A stretch of 64,000 nucleotides of DNA from Escherichia coli (GTDB taxonomy: Bacteria; Pseudomonadota; Gammaproteobacteria; Enterobacterales; Enterobacteriaceae): the NCBI RefSeq assembly GCF_011045215.1, contig NZ_CP049202.1, one strand, 5' to 3'. Positions within the stretch are counted from its first letter, which is position 1. The number at the start of each line of letters is the position of its first letter. This document shows positions 1,625-61,250 of this stretch, one piece after another. The position numbers and the translations under genes are program-made. The notes beneath the pieces are model-generated. The model was not told the DNA's origin and ran no database searches. It was given only the letters and a program-made list of their open reading frames with translations.

Positions 1625-4600
1625 TCAGTCTCCGCCCAGGGTTTTCTCTTTCTGCAGGTCACGAACCATATCCCGCTCCATCTGCTGCAGTCGCTCCTGC
1701 AGCAGATTTTCCCGGGCAACCTCCCGGACCGCTTCCCGCACCCGTTGTGGTTCACGCAGTACACTCTCCGGCAGCGCGGCTTCCCGTTCAGTTATGGCAG
1801 CCCGGTCACGCTCCTGCCCGGCAATCTCCCTGACAGCCTGCTCTGTTTTGCCATCCGGCAGGTCAGGTTTGTTCTCTGCCATTTTACGGACAATTTCATC
1901 TGCGCGACGTTCCGTTTCACGGCGGATGGCCTCTTCAGCCTGCCGCTGTGCCAGTACCTCTGCCGTGACCGGTTCGCCATTTCCGGCCCCCGGCTGGACG
2001 CTGTTGTCCGGAATATCTCCCCACACGCGACCACCGGTGATGGCACCGGGATTCCACGGGCGACCTTCACCGGCAATTCTCACCACCACACCGCTGTCAG
2101 GATTATCACGAGCAATCCGGACGCCATCCTGCATGTTATCAGCCAGCAGACTCTCTCCGTTACGGCTGCCCTGCAGGGCCACGAACTGCGCATCTCCGCT
2201 GCCTTTCACCCGGCCTTCACCGCTGAATCCCCGCAGCCCGTTTCCGTCATCCGTAGTCAGTGGGTTCAGCCAGATACCGGCGGACTTGCCGTTACGGTCA
2301 AAAGCCGGCAGTGCCACATACGGCTGCGGATATTTGCGCCCCGGTGCAATAAACCGTGCAGGACTGTCTCCCCCGGCAAGTCCCGCCTGACGGAGAACGG
2401 CACGCCCTGCCGCCACGTCCCGCAGTTCCCGTGCCGTACTGAACAGTCGCTCTGCATTCATGACCTCCCGGTCAGCTTTCGGCTCCAGCACATCGTGGGC
2501 AGTCCCTTTCTGTACGGCATTGTTGATGGCATCCGTCCAGCCCTGACGGTCATCAGTGTACACCTGCACATGCTGCTTCATACGCGACAGGGCAACGTAG
2601 GCTGACTCAAAGCCGGCCATCTGTTTCCGGCCACCTTCCGTGCCTTCAAGCGCGATGGCAAAGGTTTCACTCGCCCCCTGTGCACCGTGGGCAGTGATGG
2701 CATAGGCCAGGTCAATATGTTGTTCTGCCTGCTCCTGACCGGGGCGAATCACCCGGGTCTGCAGTCCGTCAGAAAGCGTGACACTGTCACCGGAAACCGC
2801 CGTCACCGTCCAGACGCTGTTGGCCACATAGCCGCGCTCCCGGTCACTCTTCGTGAAGCGCATCCGGTCACCGGTCCCCACCCGGATGGTGTCCGGGGTG
2901 TACAGTGTGACACCTTCAGCCACCGCCTCCCGGGGCGAAATCAGCCGCGTGTTACCTTCCGCATCCTGCAGGGTTATCAGCCCGTCACCCTTACTGATAC
3001 CGGCAATCCGGTGATACACATTATCCACCAGGACAAGTGCGTCCCGATGTGTCTCCCAGGTGGAGAGACGACGCAACTCCCCGTCGCGTATATTCGCTGT
3101 GTTCAGGACAGGCACCATGACCTGCTCTTTTCCCAGCTCACCGGCCTTTTCCCGTGCATCATGAATCATGCTGTTCAGTACGCGCCGGTCCTCATTCAGA
3201 TGCGTGACAATCAGCGTCTGCTCCCGTGCTTCCGGCGTCCTGCCGGTATAATCGCGGACAATGGCTTCATACAGTGTCATGGGAATATCCGGAAAAGCCT
3301 CACCTTTCAGCATCGCCTTCTGCTGCGCTTCTGCCAGTTTCGCTTCCTGGCTGTGACTGAACTCCGTCACGGAGTGCTCCGGTACCCATGCGCCCTCCTG
3401 ACGTGGCACCTGAGACGGTTTCACACTCTCAAGCCCGGACAGTGCCCTTTCCACATCCCGGTTAATCAGGCTGTATACCGCCTCCCGCAGCTCCGGCGTC
3501 TGACGCACAATCTCCTTCATGATGGCCACATCGGCAGCACTGCGCGTCTGCTGGAGACGGAAAGGCTGACCGGGCGCGATGGCCTGCAGCTGGTCCGTGT
3601 CACCACTGGCCACGGCACGACCACCACCGGCCGCAATCAGGGCGTATGCCCGTGCCATGTCGGTATTGCCCACCATTGAGCTCTCATCGAGCAGGAACAG
3701 CGTGTTGCTGAAATCCGGCGTTTCTCCGCTGCGCTGCTGCAGCTGCGTGTCATGCAGAAAGGACGCCAGTGTCTGTGCATCCACGCCAGCGCTGCGCATC
3801 TCCCCGACCGCACGGTGCGTGGGCCCCAGCCCCACGACACGGGGACGCTCACTCTCCGGCAGCATGTTCACGGCTGACATCACCGCCCGGAACTGTGTGG
3901 TCTTACCCACACCGGCATAACCCTGCACCACCGTGAAGCGGTCAGAGGTTTCCAGTATCATGCGGGTGGCGGCACGTTGCCCCGACGTCAGTTTCTCCAT
4001 AAGTTCGCCAGGTACTCTCTCCATCAGCGGCGTGACAGCCTCCTTACCTTCGAGAATATGGCGAATAATGCTTTTTTCAGCCTCATATGACGCACGGGAA
4101 ACCAGCAGGTCTGTGCCATAACCTTTTGCCACATCCACATGCAGTAAATCACCGCGTTTTATCTGTGCATCGATTTCCCGCCCCAGGTCAGCAAAACTGG
4201 TTCCTTCTGCAGCAAACGACTTTGCCTCTGTCAGCAGGTCCACATGGCTGAAGGCCAGGTTTTTACTTTCCACCACCGGAAGGGCCAGATGAATGGCCTG
4301 CTGTGCCGGCGTGTGAAGTGCGGACTTCTGATGACTGATAGCGGTTTCCAGCGATGTCTCACCGGCCCGCGCCTTTATCTGCTCAGAAACCACCGTAAAG
4401 GAGGGATGGCGGGCAAGTTTTTCCGCAGTACGGGTTTCATCCAGTGAGGAATACAGCCGGACATCACGACCGCTGCGGGCCAGACCGTTCAGGGTGGCGT
4501 TGTCCATTGCCATCTGTGTGACGGAGGCAAAAACCTTCGCACTGTCGCTGACGGAATGCCCGGGCGTTTCCACCCAGCCGTTCTCCAGCTTCAGTGCCGT

Positions 4601-6895
4601 GAACGGTGAATCAGCCACAGGCAGGGTGGCCGGTTCAGCCCGCCCCGGCACAACAACCGTCATCGCATCTTCACTGACGGATGCCACCTGCAGGCGGTCA
4701 CCGCCGGAGACGCGGAGTCCGGGGATTTGTCCCGTCACCCTCAGACGCTCGCCGTCTGCCACCGGCATTTTTTCCGGCCGGAACAGCGACCAGCTGCTGT
4801 CCAGAGAAGAAATACGCACCACCTGCGTTTCACCCTGCGCATCCCGCAGGGTCAGGCTGTGACTCTGCGCCGTCACCCGGTCTATCACATAGCGGTCATG
4901 ACTGCGTGTCTCCGGGTTCCACTGCTCCATCACCATCCCCGGGCGGTACATATCCCGCAGATAACGGCTCCGGCTGTCCAGCCAGACCGGTGACAGGGCG
5001 GTCATGGTTACTTCCGGGTGTCCGAGCACGCCCTGTGTTTTCAGCTCACTGCGAATGGCCTGTGTCAGTATGGCCTGTTCCCGTACCCCGCTGACCTGTG
5101 CCACGCTCTCTTCTCCGGCTTTCACGCTGGCCGCAAAATCTCCTGCCAGCCGGGCATAGCGGACATTACGGTCCGGTTCACTGATGATGGTGGCCGGTCG
5201 CTGTTCTCCCCCCAGCCAGCGATATGTGTTCACCCCGGCATCCTTCATGGCCATCAGCGCACTGCCTGTACCGGTTCGCTGCCCGCTGTCGGTTATCAGG
5301 ACCTGTACGTTATGACGTGCGGCACCGTCCAGCAGGGTTAACGTCTCTTTCAGGGAGAGTTTTTCGCCCTGGTCAACGATAACAGTACTGCCCGGCGTGA
5401 AGGCCATGCCTTCCAGCAACTGACGACGTCCGGTTATCAGCTCACCGGACAGCCGTTCATCCTGCTTCAGGTTCATCTGCGAGCGACGGTCAGCAGCGAT
5501 AATCTGCACTTCCCGCCCCTGCTCCCGGGCCATCATGACCAGTTCAGCCACCCGCTCACGCTGCCCGGCTGCACCGCCCTGCCCGGACACAATGGCCAGC
5601 GACGGACGGTCCTGTGCCAGAACACTGACCGCATCGCTGTAACCAGCCGTCCGGGGGACACTTTTCTCCGGATGTACGGTCACCCGGTTCTGTTTCATGA
5701 TGTCACGACTGAGTGCCCGGACGGACAGCTCATCGAGCACATGAATTCCTGATGTGAACAGCCCCTTCTCACGGTCGAGGGGGATGAGTTGCTCACGACT
5801 GATGGCCTCATCGATACCGGCGCGTGCCCGTTCAATCACACCATTTTCCGGCGGCAGTATACCGACCGTTCTGGCCAGCACGTCCGTATACGTGAACTGC
5901 ACTTTTCGTTCACTTAATCCGGCAATGGCCTGTGTCACCGCCTGCTGCACATCCGGCCCCTCCAGTGAAACAGCCCCGGGCGCCTGCGTGCGGGTCTCTG
6001 CCCGTTGCTCCGCCGCGTCACGATACGCCCGGATATCGAACCCGGTTTCCTTCAGTGTCTGCATCCACTCGGTCATTTTGATTTCAGGATCGACGTGCTG
6101 TTTGGATTTTCGCGTATCCAGTGCTGCCACATCCCGGGATTTCAGCGAGGCGTCTTCCCCGACGGCCTCCCTGATAGCCTGCGAACGACTGGAAAAGGCC
6201 TCCACCGGTACGCCCGGCATCTCCCACATCCCGTGCTTACCGACCACTTCGGTTTCATAGCCCAGCGCCTCAACCTGCTCTTTCAGCTTTTCCCGGTAGA
6301 GTCTGCCAAAGGCAATCTGATTAGCGTACACATTCTCAATGAACCCTGTTTTTCCCACTTTGTCACTGCTCAGTGTCTTCCACTCGCCGTTATGCTGTGT
6401 AACATTGGCCACCACCGCATGCGTGTGTAACTGTGGTTCCTGATCGCGACTGGTGTCGTGATTAAAAAGCGCCATCACCAGATTACCGGTCAGCACCGTT
6501 TCTGACTGTCCGTCCGTCATAACCCGTGTGGAGGCCAGCGCCTCCACCTGACGGACAGCAAAATCCACGGCCTGGTTATGTGCATCAATAAGACGTTTAT
6601 CACCGCCTAACATGGCCATCACGGAGACACTTTTGGGGGCGGAGAAGGTCAGGTCGTAGCCGGGACGATGCTTATTACTGCCATCCTGCATGCGGCTTAA
6701 ATCCGCTCCGTCCGGCAGCCTGCCCTCCAGAAGACGGGTAAAAACATCCTTATCGACACTGCCCTGCAGCCCCAGCTGTTCAGCCCCCCTGCCGGCCCAG
6801 CGTTCTCCCATGCTGCCCAGCACATAGTAATTATCCTTGTCGGTATAATAGTTACCGGCACTTCCGGCCGATCTGACCTGCGCGATACTCATCAT
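1625..6895 (-). CDS. traI: TraI relaxase/DNA helicase I (1756 aa)
   Basis: 1756 aa as in F TraI; N-terminal relaxase domain and C-terminal helicase region with Walker A (GYAGVGKT); ATG overlaps traD stop. Confidence 0.97.
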   Translation of the reverse strand: MMSIAQVRSAGSAGNYYTDKDNYYVLGSMGERWAGRGAEQLGLQGSVDKDVFTRLLEGRLPDGADLSRMQDGSNKHRPGYDLTFSAPKSVSVMAMLGGDKRLIDAHNQAVDFAVRQVEALASTRVMTDGQSETVLTGNLVMALFNHDTSRDQEPQLHTHAVVANVTQHNGEWKTLSSDKVGKTGFIENVYANQIAFGRLYREKLKEQVEALGYETEVVGKHGMWEMPGVPVEAFSSRSQAIREAVGEDASLKSRDVAALDTRKSKQHVDPEIKMTEWMQTLKETGFDIRAYRDAAEQRAETRTQAPGAVSLEGPDVQQAVTQAIAGLSERKVQFTYTDVLARTVGILPPENGVIERARAGIDEAISREQLIPLDREKGLFTSGIHVLDELSVRALSRDIMKQNRVTVHPEKSVPRTAGYSDAVSVLAQDRPSLAIVSGQGGAAGQRERVAELVMMAREQGREVQIIAADRRSQMNLKQDERLSGELITGRRQLLEGMAFTPGSTVIVDQGEKLSLKETLTLLDGAARHNVQVLITDSGQRTGTGSALMAMKDAGVNTYRWLGGEQRPATIISEPDRNVRYARLAGDFAASVKAGEESVAQVSGVREQAILTQAIRSELKTQGVLGHPEVTMTALSPVWLDSRSRYLRDMYRPGMVMEQWNPETRSHDRYVIDRVTAQSHSLTLRDAQGETQVVRISSLDSSWSLFRPEKMPVADGERLRVTGQIPGLRVSGGDRLQVASVSEDAMTVVVPGRAEPATLPVADSPFTALKLENGWVETPGHSVSDSAKVFASVTQMAMDNATLNGLARSGRDVRLYSSLDETRTAEKLARHPSFTVVSEQIKARAGETSLETAISHQKSALHTPAQQAIHLALPVVESKNLAFSHVDLLTEAKSFAAEGTSFADLGREIDAQIKRGDLLHVDVAKGYGTDLLVSRASYEAEKSIIRHILEGKEAVTPLMERVPGELMEKLTSGQRAATRMILETSDRFTVVQGYAGVGKTTQFRAVMSAVNMLPESERPRVVGLGPTHRAVGEMRSAGVDAQTLASFLHDTQLQQRSGETPDFSNTLFLLDESSMVGNTDMARAYALIAAGGGRAVASGDTDQLQAIAPGQPFRLQQTRSAADVAIMKEIVRQTPELREAVYSLINRDVERALSGLESVKPSQVPRQEGAWVPEHSVTEFSHSQEAKLAEAQQKAMLKGEAFPDIPMTLYEAIVRDYTGRTPEAREQTLIVTHLNEDRRVLNSMIHDAREKAGELGKEQVMVPVLNTANIRDGELRRLSTWETHRDALVLVDNVYHRIAGISKGDGLITLQDAEGNTRLISPREAVAEGVTLYTPDTIRVGTGDRMRFTKSDRERGYVANSVWTVTAVSGDSVTLSDGLQTRVIRPGQEQAEQHIDLAYAITAHGAQGASETFAIALEGTEGGRKQMAGFESAYVALSRMKQHVQVYTDDRQGWTDAINNAVQKGTAHDVLEPKADREVMNAERLFSTARELRDVAAGRAVLRQAGLAGGDSPARFIAPGRKYPQPYVALPAFDRNGKSAGIWLNPLTTDDGNGLRGFSGEGRVKGSGDAQFVALQGSRNGESLLADNMQDGVRIARDNPDSGVVVRIAGEGRPWNPGAITGGRVWGDIPDNSVQPGAGNGEPVTAEVLAQRQAEEAIRRETERRADEIVRKMAENKPDLPDGKTEQAVREIAGQERDRAAITEREAALPESVLREPQRVREAVREVARENLLQERLQQMERDMVRDLQKEKTLGGD

Positions 6896-9048
6896 CAGAA
6901 ATCATCTCCCGGCTCAACATCCTCCCCGCGCTCCCGGTGCACATTAATGTTCACCTCTTCACGACGCTGCATCTGCTGCTGGATGTCCGGATGATTTTCC
7001 TGTTGCCATGCCTCATAAGCGGCCATATCCACTACTTCACCGGATTCACTGATCCCGGGTGGCAGTTGCTGTTCCATCTCTTCTTCCGGTTTCATTTTCA
7101 GCTCCTGCTCGATCCCCCCTGCCGGAACATTCACACCTGCATCTGACTTCTTATCATTGATGACAGAAGACACTGGCTGTTGTGGCTGTTCAGCCTGAAC
7201 CACGTCTTCTCCGGAAACAACCTCCGGGACATCCGGTTCGAAGAGGCTGGCCATCTGGCGACCTTCTGCTTCTCTTGCGGCAAGCACGGCACTCAGGCGA
7301 TTCTCCATTTCCGGATTGATTTCACGCGGAATAAACTCCGGAGCAACCTTCGGACGTTCCTGATATTTCAGTGAGAGTTTTACTGCCGGATACGGTCCGG
7401 GCAGGGTGACATAACAGGTCAGATCCGGCAGAGACTGAATGTCGGAATAACTGACCAGCGTCTGGCGCTCCATATCCTTACCGGTCGATACCCCGTCACG
7501 CACGGGATCAGCACCGTAGGAATACTGCTCGCTGGCTTTCAGGTGCTCTTTCTCACCAATTTCACCGGCAGCGAACTCTGCAATCTTATGGCTGGGAGAA
7601 CGGAAAAAGGCACGGGTGTTCATGACGTCAAACAGCGTGGCAGCCGCTTTCTCACCGTAGATATCTTCCAGCTGGGCATAGGACTGGATACCAAATACAT
7701 AGCAGCCACCAAACTTACGGGCTTCCGGCAGGATCTCCACCAGGTCCGGCAGTTTGTGTAACGTGGGTAACTCATCACAGAAAAACCACACACGACGGCT
7801 ACGGTTTTCTCCCATTGCCAGCAGACCACGAATGGCAATGGACAGCCACATGGAGATCACCGGCTTCAGGGAGGCATGGGTGTCGGCGTTCGACGAGATA
7901 AACAGCCAGCCGTTTTTCTGATCTTCCCGGACACCACGCATCCAGTCACGGATGGTGAAGGGCTCACCGTTATGCTCAATCCCCTGCAGGTAACGGATGG
8001 CTTTCACGTAGTTGGTCAGCACAGCACGGATGGAAATCGCCGTTTTCTCGATTTTCTCTTCCACCAGGTTGGCCGCCGGTGAATTACGCAGGAAGGTACG
8101 CAGTTTTTCGATTTTGATGGAAAGCAGTGTGTCCACCAGTTTGCTGTAACTGCGGTTGGGGTCATTACGCATCAGGTACGCCGCTTCCGCAAAAATGGTA
8201 CGTCCTGAACCCTGCCAGAACGGGTCCTCTTTTGTGCCCATCGGGATCAGCGTGTTCGCGGTATTATCAAAATCCGGCTGTGTCAGGCACTCCTTCCACA
8301 AATCCCAGGCGGCACAGCGGGCATCCAGCGGATTCAGGATTTTATCGATGGAGGGATCATAGTAACTTTTAACAAATTCCCCTGAACGGTCATAAATCAC
8401 CACCATATCTCCACGCTGACGGGCGTAGTTGGCCAGACGACGGATAACTTCCGACTTACCGGCCCCGACCGTGCCGTGCAGACAGAAGTTCTGGATTTCG
8501 GAATCCCGGATAATCGGCAGGTCGCCAATCCGTATATCGGAGTCCTTGCCGTCTTTTTTCAGCATCCGGGCAACGTCTTTCGGGTTCTCCGTCAGCTGAC
8601 GACCACCTGTGACTTCATTTTCGCTCTGTTGTTTACCCTGACGCCCCAGAATCCAGGAGACAACAAAGAAGGTAATCAGGCAAATAACCAGTGCCACAAC
8701 TGTGGCCAGAACGAATGCGGACCATAGCTGCTCTCCGCACCAGATCATATATTTATCATGCAGTACCTGAGCAGCATTCATCCGGAAGGTTTTGCCGTAA
8801 TACTGGATCTCATATACCGGCTGGGACCTGATTAAATCCCGCATGCCTTCCAGCGTGGTACACCACCAGTAAATACAGCCGTTCACAAACGTCTGCCAGC
8901 TTATTTTTACCCATAAAACCAGACCAACGAGTATCCAGAAAAAAATAAACAGGCAGTAAAGCATGATATTGGCGATCTGGCTGAACATGCGGATACGCAT
9001 GGACGCAATCTGACCGCCCTGGGTCATATCCTTTGCGTTAAAACTCAT
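6895..9048 (-). CDS. traD: TraD type IV coupling protein (717 aa)
   Basis: 717 aa; N-terminal TM segments, Walker A (GTVGAGKS), acidic C-terminal tail ending ...EPGDDF as in F TraD. Confidence 0.95.
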
Positions 9049-9098
9049 GATGAAACTCCGGGAAAATCTGGAACAGAGCAGAAAAGGATGATGTGGGA

Positions 9099-9836
9099 TT
9101 AATTCACAGAAACAGACCAGGTGTACCCTGTATGCCGGTGGTGATAACCGCCTGCAGTCCTGCCGGAAGAGACCTTCTTTGTAACAATGTCAGTCAGGCG
9201 CAATACTTCAGACCAGTCACTCCCATGCGGAAACTGGATCTGAATAAAAAGGCGTACCCGTTCACGATGATCCAGAACTGTGTCCGGTTCATAAAGCAGA
9301 CCACTATCAGGAGAAACACGGGACGTTTTATTGATGAGTTCGTATTTATCGGCATGAGACAGTGATGAAAGCGCCCAGGTAATATTTTCGCCCTGATGAC
9401 CATCAATACGACTGTTCCCCGGCGTCCAGGCAATTTCCTGCGCATTCGCCACGATGATCTGTCTCGATACTTCTGCCAGCTTTTTTGAAGTACAGAATAC
9501 CGGTGCCAGCACACACAGGGACAAAAAATTGCAGCTGACCGCTTCCGGTTTAACCGGACTGCTCCCGGATTTTTCAGGAAAAGATATTTTTGTCAGTATT
9601 TCAGTTAATTCCTTATGCCTGAGAGAGTTAATAAAGTGCATGACAAGCATCATGAGAAACAATATAACAATAAGCCCTCCGATAACCACTAAAAGGTCAG
9701 TATCAATATTATTGTTGTACAGATAGTCTTTAGTGGTCGCTGTATTATCCTGTATCACCGGGGGGTATTCAGTTACAGGCTTCTCAGTAAATTGATTATT
9801 CTCACCAACATATTCAGCGATATTGTCTGATGTCAT
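9099..9836 (-). CDS. Hypothetical single-pass membrane protein (245 aa from ATG with GGAG RBS); not part of the canonical F tra set
   Basis: ORF between traT and traD; start chosen at MTSDNIAEY (GGAG ~8 nt upstream); one strong TM helix ([22 protein letters not shown]); no recognisable domain. Confidence 0.55.
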
Positions 9837-10038
9837 AATGACTTTCTCCGGAAGCTTCCGGCTTCGCCGGCAACACTTCACGGTCGCACAAAGAATTTGC
9901 ACAACCGCTCAGTGTTTTCATATTTATTTCGGAAACGCCGGGGAGAAATAAAATTTATTTTATTTCTTTCCGGGGTTGGACAACGAGCAAAGCGAGGCGT
10001 CAGTCAGGAGGCCGGTCAGACCAGCCTCCTGAAGATAA

Positions 10039-20629: not shown

Positions 20630-20848
20630 ATGTCATCTCAACTTCAGAACTGTGTTGATTGTGGTAAAGCATTAAGTCGAACAGCCACAACGTGCGGGAA
20701 TTGCAGCTCAACGGACCCTTTTGGAAAAAAACGGCGCAGTGATCGCTTTTACCAGTGGTTTGTAGGGCTGTTTATTACGGCTATTATTATTGCTGGCGGA
20801 TTATGGTACATGGGGCTTCTTGACGTACCGGGATTACTACTCAGATAA
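20630..20848 (+). CDS. Hypothetical small zinc-ribbon protein with C-terminal TM helix (72 aa), antisense to the tra operon
   Basis: ATG at 20630 with GGAG ~10 nt upstream; CxxC...CxxC motif (CVDCGKAL...CGNCSS) and hydrophobic C-terminus; could be a non-coding antisense frame. Confidence 0.35.
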   Translation: MSSQLQNCVDCGKALSRTATTCGNCSSTDPFGKKRRSDRFYQWFVGLFITAIIIAGGLWYMGLLDVPGLLLR

Positions 20849-21217
20849 CGACTTCAGTAACGATATCAGTGTTCTGAAATCGGCACATAACGAGTGACGA
20901 CAATACCGGTTATACCAGTAATGAGGGGTGTCGGGCTGAAGCCTGAAACAGAGCTGAAACTCACTGTTAAAAGCCCCCTTCACCGACCATCCCCATGCCA
21001 GACGTGGTATTGCTGATTCAGCATCCTGCCGCAGTCGCTGCTCAAGAAGGGCAGCCATTTTTACCGGACAGGCAAAGGCAATATAAGGAGGCAGCTTTGT
21101 AACAGGGAAACCATGTCCCTGACAGGAAGCATATGTGCGGAAGCCGTGAATGTTCATCGCGGCCACCAGGGCACGGATCTCCGGATCAATCTGATAATAC
21201 CCGGCAGGTAAAGTCAT
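20837..21217 (-). CDS. Hypothetical protein (126 aa), translationally coupled to trbC; not in canonical F
   Basis: ATG overlaps the trbC stop (ATGA); no recognisable motif. Confidence 0.55.
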   Translation of the reverse strand: MTLPAGYYQIDPEIRALVAAMNIHGFRTYASCQGHGFPVTKLPPYIAFACPVKMAALLEQRLRQDAESAIPRLAWGWSVKGAFNSEFQLCFRLQPDTPHYWYNRYCRHSLCADFRTLISLLKSLSE

Positions 21218-36009: not shown

Positions 36010-36225
36010 TTATATATCGTCTATGTCTTCAGCTTCCTCCTTTACTAAAGATGCATTATAAAAGTCGGGAAAACGATTGAGATGATCTTTTAGTCTAATG
36101 AACACCTCATTAGTTTTTGTTCTTCCGCTACGATCCCTGGCTGCTAAAAGTTTCTGATTAGTTGTCTCATCCAGTATTAATAAGACTTTGTTACCTGGTG
36201 CGGCTCTGGTTCTCCCTCTGCTCAC
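36010..36225 (-). CDS. traY: TraY ribbon-helix-helix oriT-binding / PY activator (short, about 71 aa form)
   Basis: Small basic ORF between traJ and traA; RHH-like segment; short form as in R100-type plasmids. Confidence 0.6.
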   Translation of the reverse strand: MSRGRTRAAPGNKVLLILDETTNQKLLAARDRSGRTKTNEVFIRLKDHLNRFPDFYNASLVKEEAEDIDDI

Positions 36226-58118: not shown

Positions 58119-61100
58119 TCAGACGTGATTAAACATAGCTATGACAGGATCTGTCATCTCTGCATCCAGCTCCCAGAGATGGGTCATAATACTTTTAAGC
58201 GGATCATCTGCATCTTCCCGGCAGAACGTGCAGAACATCGTATCATCAGGATAACGGAACAGACGTAAACGGCCAAAAGATGAATTCCGTACCAGTAATG
58301 AGTAATTATCCTGACAGTCCGGAACGAAATATATTGTACAGTTGCCAATCATATATTGAAGAACATGTGGCTGATATCCCTTTTCTGGTTTACTTACTCT
58401 TTTTATGCCAAGTTCATTATGTTTATCAGTGCAATATTCAAGTTCGTATAATTTCCTGGAAAAACAATCACCATACACAATGAGAGTGCAATCTTCTTCT
58501 TTTTTCATAAAAATTTTTACTTTATGAAAAAGTTCATCCAGATTGCCTATATCCTCACTCAACTGACCGCGATTAATAAAGAGTTTCCGGTGAACTGTAT
58601 TAAGTATGTTGTCTGCAATTGTTGTTGAGGGAAAAAATGTCGGATCAATTGTGCGTCCAAGTTTCTTTGCCACACTTTCCTTATCAATGCCAATATTAAT
58701 CCATTGTTTTTCCCAGCGTTCTGAAATTCCAGTATCAGGTGTAAACTCAAACAGAGAAAGAAGATGATCTTTCTTAATATCATCAACAACATTCTGAGAG
58801 ATGTTCATATCAATTCTTCTGAAAAGATCGATGTCTGCTTCTGCCTTTATAATATCTGACTTAATACTTTCTTCAAAAGCGGATATGTACATGTCCAGCG
58901 TTCTGTTAAAGAATACAACTCGCGTAGCATACTCCTCCGATGTCTTCAGAAAGTTTTCTGCTACTTCTGTTGTGCTTTTTGTCAGAGATTTCAGCGTATA
59001 AACAATATTTTTTTTATCAGAAAATGAAAAAATCCCTTCACCGATTGCAGTAACCACTTTCTGGCTGATACGTTGTTCAGATACAGACAGCATTACCGCT
59101 ATATCAGCAAATGCAGGGTATAGTGTGTTTAAATCATCAACACTACTCATATAAATCCGCCCGGAAATAACCGGGCCTTTGTTGTTTCTGGTGAGCCTCT
59201 CCACCATATGAGACAAACGTGAAAACCAGTTACTGTGCTCGTCTGCATGGCAGAAAGTGAGACGTAATATAACATCAATAATATCAGTCTGACCTACTAT
59301 TGCCGAAGGTAGTGTATTATATGCACCAGTTGGGGCGACCAGTGAAGGAGACAGTAACCGTTTGATGACAGTGAGCAAATTGACATTTTTTTGTTGTCCC
59401 AGATACCTCACCATATAAGCTGACAGGAACAGGCGGAGATCAGTCATCACATTACGCATTGTCAGGGATAATGCGGCTTTTTCGTTATACGATGCCCCCC
59501 TCAATATGCAGGACTGACAGTTGTCTGAAACAGAGTGCAATAAAAAATCTGGCGTAAGAAAAAGGCTGTGCCACAGATATTCTTCGTGATAATGATTATG
59601 AAACTGCCCCTGATTAAGCCACAGCATAAACATATCAGTACTCAGATCAGTGGCATCAATATCATCAGATGTTATTGCCGTAATAAGCATTTCCATAGAG
59701 CGAAACAAATGTGATACAAGGGCCTCAGTATAGCCAGCAGTATCAACATTATTCTTAAACGTCAGACGCAACCACATATGCCAGCTTTCCCACTCGCCGA
59801 TAAAATGTTGCAGCATTGCAACATAACGTTGCTTCTGGTTCACTGATAACGCCTTGTTTCCAACATTCCAGTCAATCAGTATCTGCCAGATATCACACTG
59901 GGACTGAAGAGCCTGTTGCAACTCTCCGGTTCTGTCTTCTCCCCGATACCGGTAAAAAGACTGAGGAAGATGTATGATCTTTCGAAAATACGTAGATGTG
60001 GTATCCAGTGTTTTCACCACTTCTTCTGCAAGACGGTAGAAATCATTATGAAAAGACTGGCTTAAACTTTGTGGAAAAAATGAAATGGATACATCATCAA
60101 TATAATTTTTATCACCATACTGGAAACATCTTTTCAGTGTAATAAAGGTCGAAACAAGTCTGTCTGCAGCTTCCTCAAACGCCCCCAGATTTCGTTCATC
60201 CAGAGCATCATAAATTTCCCCATAAAAACCTCTGGTGAAATTTAAAAAATTTGTTTTTTCCCATTTGCTTCCACGGATAAAACAGAGCTTAAACAGCTTC
60301 TCCCAGATAGCATTATATCTGATACCGGTTGTAGCCAGAATAACCACTTCGCTGTTATGTATCCCCCACCCAGGTAAGACTCTGATTCTTGCAGGTCCCG
60401 TTCCGACAGGTTTTAATCTCCTGAGGAGAAACAATAATGGAAGTGTATAGATATCTCTCACACATTCATCCATTTTAAGTTTTAACTTCAGAAGATCAGA
60501 CTTTTCCTTCTCCGGAGAATCATAAACATCAACAGAGACATTCAGCCGTCCCATTTGGTTAATATATCTCCCAGGAAGAGCCAACCAGTTTTTTACCATT
60601 GCTGTTCTGATATGTTGCGCCACGACTTTTGAAATAAAATACTTAAGCATAATTCGATCACGCCGGCGATCATCCAGAACATTCAGGCTCTGAATAAAAA
60701 ACCAGATAGACAAACCAATATTCATGATCATCCAGATTATTGCCACTACAACAAGGCAAATATCAAGGTATTTATCCCCCCGGGCAGACAAAAGTTCACT
60801 CACCAGAATAAATGCAGCAAGGGAAAGACCGCTCAGACCTGCAAACATGTATCCTGAGTAAAGCTGATAGGCCGACTGGATATGCTCACGTGTCGATTTT
60901 TTCTGAAAAAGGACGCTGATCAGACCGACAACTAATGGAAATACAATACCAATGATGGTTAATTGTCCACCCAGCAGATCTGAGAGTCCATCTGGAAGCT
61001 TTTCAATCCCCTTAAAATACTGCCTGCCAAATGGAGCCAAGACCGGCCTCAGATACAAACCAGCAAGTACAATCATTATTGCACCAACCCAGAGAATCAA

Positions 61101-61250
61101 CATAGCCCGCCCATAGTATGTCGAGCACCAGGCCAGCAGGCGCTCAAAAACATTCCAGCGGTATTTTCGATATTCAGAATTCATACGTAAATTATGTCTG
61201 AGCTCACGATCAACAAGACTGTTCACGCTTTTAAACAGTTTACTCAACAT
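58119..61250 (-). CDS. Hypothetical large protein (1043 aa): four N-terminal TM helices plus a ~850-aa soluble region with Cys-rich C-terminus; function unknown
   Basis: Single long ORF, AT-rich by eye; hydrophobic helices at about residues 50-190; no Walker A or other motif I recognise. Confidence 0.7.
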   Translation of the reverse strand: MLSKLFKSVNSLVDRELRHNLRMNSEYRKYRWNVFERLLAWCSTYYGRAMLILWVGAIMIVLAGLYLRPVLAPFGRQYFKGIEKLPDGLSDLLGGQLTIIGIVFPLVVGLISVLFQKKSTREHIQSAYQLYSGYMFAGLSGLSLAAFILVSELLSARGDKYLDICLVVVAIIWMIMNIGLSIWFFIQSLNVLDDRRRDRIMLKYFISKVVAQHIRTAMVKNWLALPGRYINQMGRLNVSVDVYDSPEKEKSDLLKLKLKMDECVRDIYTLPLLFLLRRLKPVGTGPARIRVLPGWGIHNSEVVILATTGIRYNAIWEKLFKLCFIRGSKWEKTNFLNFTRGFYGEIYDALDERNLGAFEEAADRLVSTFITLKRCFQYGDKNYIDDVSISFFPQSLSQSFHNDFYRLAEEVVKTLDTTSTYFRKIIHLPQSFYRYRGEDRTGELQQALQSQCDIWQILIDWNVGNKALSVNQKQRYVAMLQHFIGEWESWHMWLRLTFKNNVDTAGYTEALVSHLFRSMEMLITAITSDDIDATDLSTDMFMLWLNQGQFHNHYHEEYLWHSLFLTPDFLLHSVSDNCQSCILRGASYNEKAALSLTMRNVMTDLRLFLSAYMVRYLGQQKNVNLLTVIKRLLSPSLVAPTGAYNTLPSAIVGQTDIIDVILRLTFCHADEHSNWFSRLSHMVERLTRNNKGPVISGRIYMSSVDDLNTLYPAFADIAVMLSVSEQRISQKVVTAIGEGIFSFSDKKNIVYTLKSLTKSTTEVAENFLKTSEEYATRVVFFNRTLDMYISAFEESIKSDIIKAEADIDLFRRIDMNISQNVVDDIKKDHLLSLFEFTPDTGISERWEKQWINIGIDKESVAKKLGRTIDPTFFPSTTIADNILNTVHRKLFINRGQLSEDIGNLDELFHKVKIFMKKEEDCTLIVYGDCFSRKLYELEYCTDKHNELGIKRVSKPEKGYQPHVLQYMIGNCTIYFVPDCQDNYSLLVRNSSFGRLRLFRYPDDTMFCTFCREDADDPLKSIMTHLWELDAEMTDPVIAMFNHV

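Follow-up and report, generated by a model that had tools for sequence, protein, structure and literature searches.

The 64-kilobase (kb) stretch of DNA analysed here, hereafter the window, carries a tra operon on the minus strand, as read from the list of open reading frames (ORFs) and their translations; the features discussed below are collected in Table 1. TraD exceeds the curated cutoffs of two NCBIfam models, TIGR02759 (TraD_Ftype; 833.9 bits, cutoff 521) and NF010254 (1639 bits, cutoff 1221, covering residues 1-717), and contains the Pfam domains TraD_N, TrwB_AAD_bind and TraG-D_C, which identifies it as a full-length F-type coupling protein. Its amino acid identity to F TraD is 98.0%. 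The protein ends in a conserved acidic tail with a C-terminal Phe, a feature known from work on F TraD and TraM as the TraM-binding tail and recognised here by sequence. The final 25 residues are the same in the window, F, R100, pSFO157 and NZ_CP010123.1 in a protein alignment, so that the ...GDDF end is not distinctive. Tandem Repeats Finder reported no repeat in the Q/P region of the window TraD; length differences between TraD proteins in the (QQP)n stretch are visible in the protein alignment only.

TraI is 97.4% identical to F TraI and matches NCBIfam NF010263 over its full length (3321 bits, cutoff 2212). Its Pfam matches include TrwC (residues 10-283), TraI_2B, AAA_30 and TraI_C. Together with the model match, the TrwC domain and the Tyr16/Tyr17 pair place the protein among the MOBF12 relaxases/helicases. 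Tyr16 is the catalytic residue of F TraI (PMC3074121).

Table 1. Positions of the features discussed, in the window and in the F locus (L001)
Feature	Position	Strand	Remarks and basis
traI, relaxase/helicase, 1756 aa, Tyr16/17	1625..6895	-	ORF list, translation, NCBIfam/Pfam
Empty site of the vapBC/trbH cassette (TGATGATG)	6890..6897	-	Junction alignments
Stop/start overlap TGATG (traD TGA 6897-6895, traI ATG 6895-6893)	6893..6897	-	Read from sequence
traD, type IV coupling protein, 717 aa, C-terminus ...EPGDDF	6895..9048	-	ORF list, translation, NCBIfam
Shine-Dalgarno-like GGGAGA within the final traD codons	6905..6910	-	Read from sequence; putative function
traA, propilin, 119 aa	35608..35967	-	95.9% identical to F TraA, 88.2% to R100 TraA
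traY, short form, 71 aa, GTG start preceded by GGAGGG	36010..36225	-	69% identical to R100 TraY (75 aa)
F trbH, 239-codon ORF on the tra strand	L001:5958..6677
F vapC	L001:5967-6365	-
F vapB	L001:6365-6592	-

The traD-traI junction in the window

The minus-strand text at the junction reads GAT GAT TTC TGA TGA TGA GTA. Base 6895 is common to the traD stop and the traI start, leaving an intergenic gap of 0, and a second in-frame ATG of traI (6892-6890) comes right after the first. The original prediction, made from the letters alone, had held that TraD ends in ...GDDF, that the traI ATG overlaps its stop codon and that trbH is absent; reading the sequence confirmed the first two points, and searches for the missing interval confirmed the third. 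F VapB and VapC, used as tblastn queries, had no match anywhere in the 64-kb window, which has only two 13-mers in common with the cassette that encodes them and contains no trbH or vapBC remnant. The window thus lacks what defines the F-type junction, an opposite-strand vapBC insert of about 716 bp with a bridging antisense ORF, and has the cassette-free, R100-type junction with its TGATG overlap and zero intervening DNA.

As judged from this arrangement, traI is most likely translationally coupled to traD. Ribosomes ending TraD synthesis, or recruited by the internal Shine-Dalgarno-like element, would initiate traI on the long tra transcript, and relaxase synthesis would thereby be tied to coupling-protein synthesis. 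The GGAG core of the element ends 10 nt 5′ of the traI ATG; this spacing is at the long end of the workable range and counts against coupling. A promoter and terminator scan found no promoter-like or terminator-like sites on the minus strand between 6600 and 7500, and the predicted RNA fold at the junction is not more structured than shuffled sequences (z = +1.64). A literature search on traD-traI translational coupling returned nothing relevant.

The vapBC cassette of F and the trbH frame

F holds 716 additional bases between traD and traI. The gene order that had been given for F, with trbH at this place, proved right, since a 239-codon ORF lies there, and the case that would have undone the prediction, the same junction in F, does not occur. 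The opposite strand of this interval encodes VapC, which reaches 286.9 bits with NF010285 (cutoff 143), and VapB, which reaches 112 bits with NF040493 (cutoff 60). The F insert is a vapB/vapC toxin-antitoxin cassette whose transcription runs opposite to that of the tra operon. “trbH” is the historical name of the frame that lies entirely antisense to vapBC and for which neither Pfam nor NCBIfam yields a match. That vapBC is encoded within trbH is already in the literature (PMC5065971; bioRxiv 10.1101/2025.06.29.662172), including the position of vapBC2ST within the trbH of pSLT (PMC5065971), and trbH has been described as less conserved than any other tra gene, with a detection rate of 8% among MOBF12 plasmids (PMC5102898). 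In alignments of F, pSLT and pINV, the 716-bp segment follows the first ATG of the junction. The cassette is flanked by a direct repeat of 3-4 bp, ATG at both ends (ATGA in F), and in cassette-bearing plasmids the BLAST pieces overlap by 4 bases on the junction query.

The frequency of the two states was assessed in PLSDB, whose counts are of records rather than independent lineages and are skewed to clinical isolates. With a 201-bp junction query, the direct junction was contiguous in 3004 of 3985 matching records (about 75%), R100 included, while the 915-bp vapBC interval of F, scored as present when at least 80% covered, was found in 1166 of 4199. The direct junction is thus the majority state and F the minority form. 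The annotations of R100, NZ_CP010123.1 and pAVS0935-B show the same one-base overlap. Recurrence of the contiguous junction in the 3004 records, and its annotation in R100 and NZ_CP010123.1, indicates that the overlap is no one-off of a single sequence. Nothing specific speaks for a junction collapsed during sequencing or assembly, and such an artefact is extremely improbable, as traD and traI are both uninterrupted and about 3000 records share this junction.

The cassette is found at this position in plasmids of Escherichia, Shigella, Salmonella, Serratia and Pantoea, a distribution which argues for an old filled state; an ancient loss could therefore be the origin of the empty site in the window. 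Nine vapBC loci were compared, from F, pSFO157, Shigella pINV, pSLT, two Pantoea plasmids and three Serratia plasmids. The DNA identity of the cassette drops to about 70% among them. The ORF antisense to vapBC spans the cassette without a stop in all nine, and the traD-traI gaps (716, 752, 779 and 1571 nt) all equal 2 modulo 3. In eight loci the start codon of the antisense ORF is an ATG that overlaps the stop of traD; the exception is S. proteamaculans, where the ORF starts 1 nt past the stop of a mobF-fragment ORF. At the other end, its stop overlaps the traI ATG in every locus.

An open frame with stop/start overlaps at both ends, wherever vapBC is in the slot, suggests that trbH is a translational relay and not a lost tra gene. 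It is quite possible, if somewhat short of probable, that translation of traI always has to be passed on from a frame translated 5′ of it, trbH being an ORF kept open for this purpose rather than for a protein function. The relay may serve stop/start coupling or protect from Rho-dependent polarity across the antisense cassette, and the direct UGAUG of the window would be this rule reduced to its bare form. Plain chance could account for the open frame, since upon synonymous recoding of the F and pSLT vapBC genes the trbH frame was still open in about 15-17% of trials; against it stands the conservation of the frame and of both overlaps in Serratia and Pantoea. Conditional nulls ranged from 0.08 to 0.60 per lineage. 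As these values are not extreme, the relay is put forward as a working hypothesis only. If true, it would explain the survival of a 239-codon antisense frame in plasmids of four bacterial families, and would provide a simple example of cargo inserted in a long operon with downstream expression unbroken.

Allele sets and inheritance of the empty site

Several tra genes of the window diverge from F. TraJ is 25% identical to the F protein and 23% to that of R100, and TraS is 27% identical to F. The F traY coding sequence, as annotated in RefSeq, has 133 aa versus 71 in the window. The predicted mature pilin begins with AQGQDL in the window and with AGSSGQDL in F. From the work of Frost and coworkers (Frost et al. 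1985), ColB2-type (group II) F-like pilin reportedly has the mature N-terminus Ala-Gln-Gly-Gln-Asp-Leu. Five pilin types are distinguished, ColB2 among them (PMC3245843, PMC2836999). The core tra genes of the window are 95-100% identical to F. Thus, the proposal of a non-F allele set within an F-like backbone holds for TraJ, TraS, TraY and the pilin. Its inclusion of trbH absence in that set fails on two plasmids: pSFO157 has window-type traM, traJ and traY alleles (99.1% DNA identity over traM-traY) yet carries vapBC, and pAVS0935-B has F-type traJ and traY (99.1%) yet shows the direct overlap.

All four possible pairings of traJ/traY allele with junction state occur (in F, pSFO157, pAPEC-O1-ColBM and pAVS0935-B). 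There is no linkage between the junction and the regulatory alleles; the two assort independently, so the junction is no marker of an F versus a non-F set. These findings bear on the alternative that trbH is a genuine tra gene whose lack helps to mark a coherent, ColB2-like allele set. While traJ, traY, traS and traA of the window are indeed non-F, and trbH figures as a named F ORF in the reference list of PMC5102898, the frame belongs to no family and is entirely antisense to vapBC, the four combinations and the two plasmids just named contradict linkage, and R100, with yet another allele set, has the same junction. We regard this alternative as very unlikely.

The closest relatives of the window differ from one segment to the next. 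pRHB40-C21_2, which carries vapBC, is 99.6% identical to window positions 39001-64000 and only about 95% identical in the traD/traI flanks, whereas NZ_CP010123.1, which has the empty site, is 99.6% identical over traD. With a 1001-bp junction query, NZ_CP010123.1 gave two aligned pieces, both 100% identical, and the record contains 36 additional bases. A search of PLSDB and complete E. coli genomes found no exact match to the window, the best hit over traI-traD-traT being 96-97%. This value, set against the 99.6% identity of 39001-64000 to pRHB40-type plasmids, indicates that the tra region is mosaic.

The window most probably received the empty allele when F-like plasmids exchanged their traD-traI segments by homologous recombination. 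The alternative, a recent precise excision in which the lineage had vapBC and lost it by deletion between the short flanking ATG/ATGA repeats, would fit the 3-4 bp repeat that bounds the cassette and the fact that the nearest relatives elsewhere in the window, pRHB40-C21_2 and pSFO157, are both vapBC-positive. However, the flanks of these two plasmids are about 95-98% identical to the window against the 99.6% traD match of the empty-site plasmid, the window contains no cassette remnant, and the empty allele is so common that exchange is the simpler explanation. Recent excision is therefore improbable. Our overall reading, held with high confidence, is that an F-like (MOBF12/MPF_F) plasmid here shows the ordinary R100-type junction without a cassette, with traI probably coupled to traD and the empty allele probably obtained by exchange.

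With the common cassette-free junction, the window plasmid is without a vapBC post-segregational killing module at that position; for this plasmid alone, the junction state is of little consequence. For annotation, “trbH absent” is better read as “vapBC cassette absent”, and the junction state is unfit as a marker to tell F from non-F allele sets.

Comparison with known F-like plasmids

The cassette-free traD-traI junction is an already known arrangement. Two of the plasmids most similar to the window in other regions differ from it at this point: pSFO157 (NC_009602), which matches it at 99.1% over traM-traJ-traY, and pRHB40-C21_2 (CP057013), which shares its rare traC-trbI island (an ORF of which was assigned to no family by Pfam or PADLOC), both have vapBC between traD and traI. 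The same cassette fills the same 716-bp slot as vapBC2ST in pSLT and as mvpAT (vapBC) in Shigella pINV, the pSLT copy being about 86% identical to that of F; in these plasmids vapBC has been described as within, or antisense to, trbH (PMC5065971; bioRxiv 10.1101/2025.06.29.662172). F itself (NC_002483) has the C-terminal tail of TraD and the traI start of the window, but also the 716-bp opposite-strand vapC and vapB insert and the 239-codon trbH bridging traD to traI, all of which the window lacks. R100 (NC_002134) differs from the window in its traJ, traY and traS alleles, in a TraD of 738 aa with a longer (QQP)n repeat (717 aa in the window), and in a TraI N-terminus (MLSFSVVKSAG) unlike the F-type start found here. 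Yet R100 resembles the window in the 245-aa ORF between traT and traD (90.6% amino acid identity) and in the junction itself, with the one-base TGATG overlap and neither intergenic DNA nor vapBC.

The traD/traI junction and its counterpart in F

According to the ORF list the tra operon of the window lies on the minus strand, where the junction reads GAT GAT TTC TGA TGA TGA GTA. Base 6895 is common to the traD stop codon (6897-6895) and the traI ATG (6895-6893), bearing out the predicted overlap of the two genes. Both products are full-length family members, TraD scoring 833.9 bits against TIGR02759 (cutoff 521) and TraI 3321 bits against NF010263 (cutoff 2212). The junction contains zero intergenic DNA; a scan of the tra strand found no promoter-like or terminator-like sites there, and the junction RNA has no unusual structure (z = +1.64). 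Such an anatomy would couple traI translation to that of traD.

Features of the window and of related loci (window coordinates unless a locus is named)
Feature	Position	Strand	Remarks
traD	6895..9048	-	717 aa (ORF list)
traI	1625..6895	-	1756 aa (ORF list)
GGGAGA	6905-6910		GGAG core ends 10 nt before traI ATG
TraD (QQP)n repeat	~7174..7190		residues ~610-620
TraY	36010..36225		GTG start; 71 aa; 69% identical to R100 short TraY
TraA			119 aa; ...AMA/AQGQDL (AGSSGQDL in F)
TraJ			25% identity to F, 23% to R100
TraS			27% identity to F
TraM			~82% identity to F
Core genes			95-100% identity to F
traT-traD gap	9049..10038		
ORF in traT-traD gap	9102..9836	-	245 aa
ORFs, traR-traC	29033..30605		absent from F
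ORFs, traU-trbC	21880..22675		absent from F
ORF after trbC	20837..21217		absent from F
traC-trbI island	24593..26297		~1.7 kb; GC 33-41%
Split island gene	24771..25046 and 24940..25878		frameshift
Leading/maintenance-region ORF	58119..61250	-	1043 aa
Historical trbH	L001:5958..6677 (F locus)	tra strand	239-codon ORF
Interval with truncated duplicate traI 5′ end and MobF fragment	L012:660..1440 (Serratia proteamaculans NZ_MT039190.1)		MMSIGLVGPAG...
vapC, altered stop	L016:1444..1896 (Pantoea agglomerans NZ_CP143405.1)		annotated length 453 nt

In F (NC_002483), 716 bases separate the end of traD from the start of traI. RefSeq annotates vapC and vapB in this gap, both on the strand opposite to tra; VapC matches NF010285, tRNA(fMet)-specific endonuclease VapC (286.9 bits, cutoff 143), with a PIN domain present, and VapB matches NF040493 (112 bits, cutoff 60). 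The start ATG of the historical trbH overlaps the traD stop and its terminal TGA overlaps the traI ATG. The frame, which has no matching Pfam or NCBIfam model, is antisense to vapBC along its whole length. This agrees with the description of pSLT vapBC2ST as "encoded within the trbH gene" (PMC5065971) and of Shigella trbH as an antisense transcript of vapBC, function unknown (bioRxiv 10.1101/2025.06.29.662172). The predicted absence of trbH is therefore to be read as absence of the vapBC cassette, and no cassette-like sequence occurs elsewhere in the window.

Age of the cassette and origin of the empty site

The empty site reads TTC TGATGATGAGT and the filled sites TTC TGATG[A]...713 bases...TTT ATGATGAGT, with ATG (ATGA in F) at both ends. 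An identical 716-bp slot holds the cassette in F, pSFO157, Shigella pINV and pSLT. Between pSLT and F the cassette is 86% identical, close to the 84% of the adjoining traI 5′ end, and Serratia and Pantoea plasmids likewise carry diverged vapBC cassettes between traD and traI. The filled state is thus an old one.

In the S. proteamaculans locus the truncated traI duplicate overlaps the traD stop and is followed by a 226-aa MobF relaxase fragment, the cassette and a full traI; this looks like a recombination scar, the cassette having been brought in together with a traI 5′ end. In P. agglomerans the annotated vapC runs into traD because its stop codon has changed (tra-strand CTA to CTG). Related cassettes, always antisense to tra, occupy other tra-region slots in E. 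albertii NZ_CP030785.2, E. coli CP099214.1 and Salmonella p14-120, either between traT and traD beside a DUF2726 gene or immediately following traX, with 2, 1 and 0 antisense-frame stops, respectively.

The empty allele could have arisen by recent excision or by allelic exchange. Plasmid pRHB40-C21_2 carries vapBC, is 99.6% identical to window 39001-64000 and has the rare traC/trbI island in common with it; its traD and traI, however, are only ~95% identical to those of the window. In traD the window is 99.6% identical to NZ_CP010123.1, an empty-site plasmid. Against a 1001-bp junction query the latter aligns in two pieces, both 100% identical, and its record holds 36 additional bases, which protein alignment placed in the (QQP)n repeat. 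The pattern is more in keeping with allelic exchange through homologous recombination in the conserved flanks than with recent excision.

The TraD repeat varies in length among plasmids, QPQQP in the window and F and 4 to 8 more units in NZ_CP010123.1, pSFO157 and R100, and junction BLAST matches split in two because of it. The window is a mosaic: 39001-64000 belongs with pRHB40-type cattle E. coli plasmids (99.6%), the traM-traY segment is 99.1% identical to pSFO157, and traI-traT has no match above ~97% in PLSDB or complete E. coli genomes. In F, R100, pSFO157 and NZ_CP010123.1 traC and trbI overlap; in the window the low-GC island separates them. Only 24 of 72,556 PLSDB records have this island, mostly livestock and farm-environment E. 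coli plasmids. Its opposite-strand gene, 368 aa with hydrophobic N- and C-termini in pRHB40-C21_2 and split by a frameshift in the window, has no significant Pfam match and no PADLOC match. The traT-traD ORF, missing from F and NZ_CP010123.1, shares 90.6% identity with the R100 hypothetical protein WP_000199905; like the 1043-aa ORF, it has no Pfam or PADLOC match. R100 encodes homologues of the small traR-traC and traU-trbC ORFs (57-97% amino acid identity), and NZ_CP010123.1 has the ORFs between traU and traN annotated as hypothetical proteins. None of four ORFs scanned (the traU-trbC pair, the post-trbC and traT-traD ORFs) matched Pfam.

The trbH frame as a candidate relay

When VapBC was synonymously recoded with tra codon usage, the trbH frame stayed open in ~15-17% of trials. 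Plain chance was the first judgement on the open frame, reopened once a tra-strand ORF was found to cross vapBC without a stop in all nine loci examined with the cassette between traD and traI (F, pSFO157, pINV, pSLT, Pantoea ananatis, P. agglomerans, two Serratia marcescens plasmids and S. proteamaculans). Its start ATG overlaps the traD stop in eight (in S. proteamaculans it lies 1 nt past the stop of the mobF-fragment ORF), and its stop overlaps the traI ATG in 9/9. The traD-traI gaps (716, 752, 779 and 1571 nt) all equal 2 mod 3, and spacers outside vapBC differ in length by multiples of three. In cassettes located elsewhere, stops in the corresponding frame number 2, 1, 0, 8, 3, 5 and 7. 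Conditional on F, the null probability of an open frame is moderate (pSLT, 0.37; Serratia, 0.23 and 0.08-0.24; Pantoea, 0.60), and our own lineage-level Fisher estimate is ~0.02. Taken together, these sequence comparisons suggest that the frame may be maintained without stops to serve as a translational relay into traI. If so, the direct overlap in the window would follow the same rule without a cassette. The relay ORF is the only part of this analysis that might repay experiment.

Allele sets and frequency of the junction states

The junction had originally been assigned to a non-F allele set, an inference that is only partly right. Non-F TraJ, TraS, TraY and TraA are indeed present within a core close to F; the AQGQDL N-terminus of TraA would be of the ColB2 pilin type. 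The junction state is not a member of this set, as all four combinations exist: F-type traJ/traY with vapBC (F, pAPEC-O1-ColBM) or with direct overlap (pAVS0935-B, 99.1% to F), and window-type traJ/traY with vapBC (pSFO157, 99.1% to the window) or with direct overlap (the window).

In PLSDB, a clinically biased collection in which figures count records rather than independent lineages, 3985 records match a 201-bp query centred on the window junction, 3004 of them contiguously, and 1166 of 4199 records cover at least 80% of the vapBC-containing F interval (915 bp). Among the matches listed, non-contiguous records align to the 201-bp query as two separate halves. A published survey found trbH, its least conserved tra gene, in 8% of MOBF12 plasmids (PMC5102898). 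Given the contiguous records and the same one-base overlap in NZ_CP010123.1 and R100, the direct junction is the majority form, in roughly three quarters of the matching PLSDB records, and F the minority form. The window has an ordinary, already known cassette-free junction, its overlap identical to that of R100.
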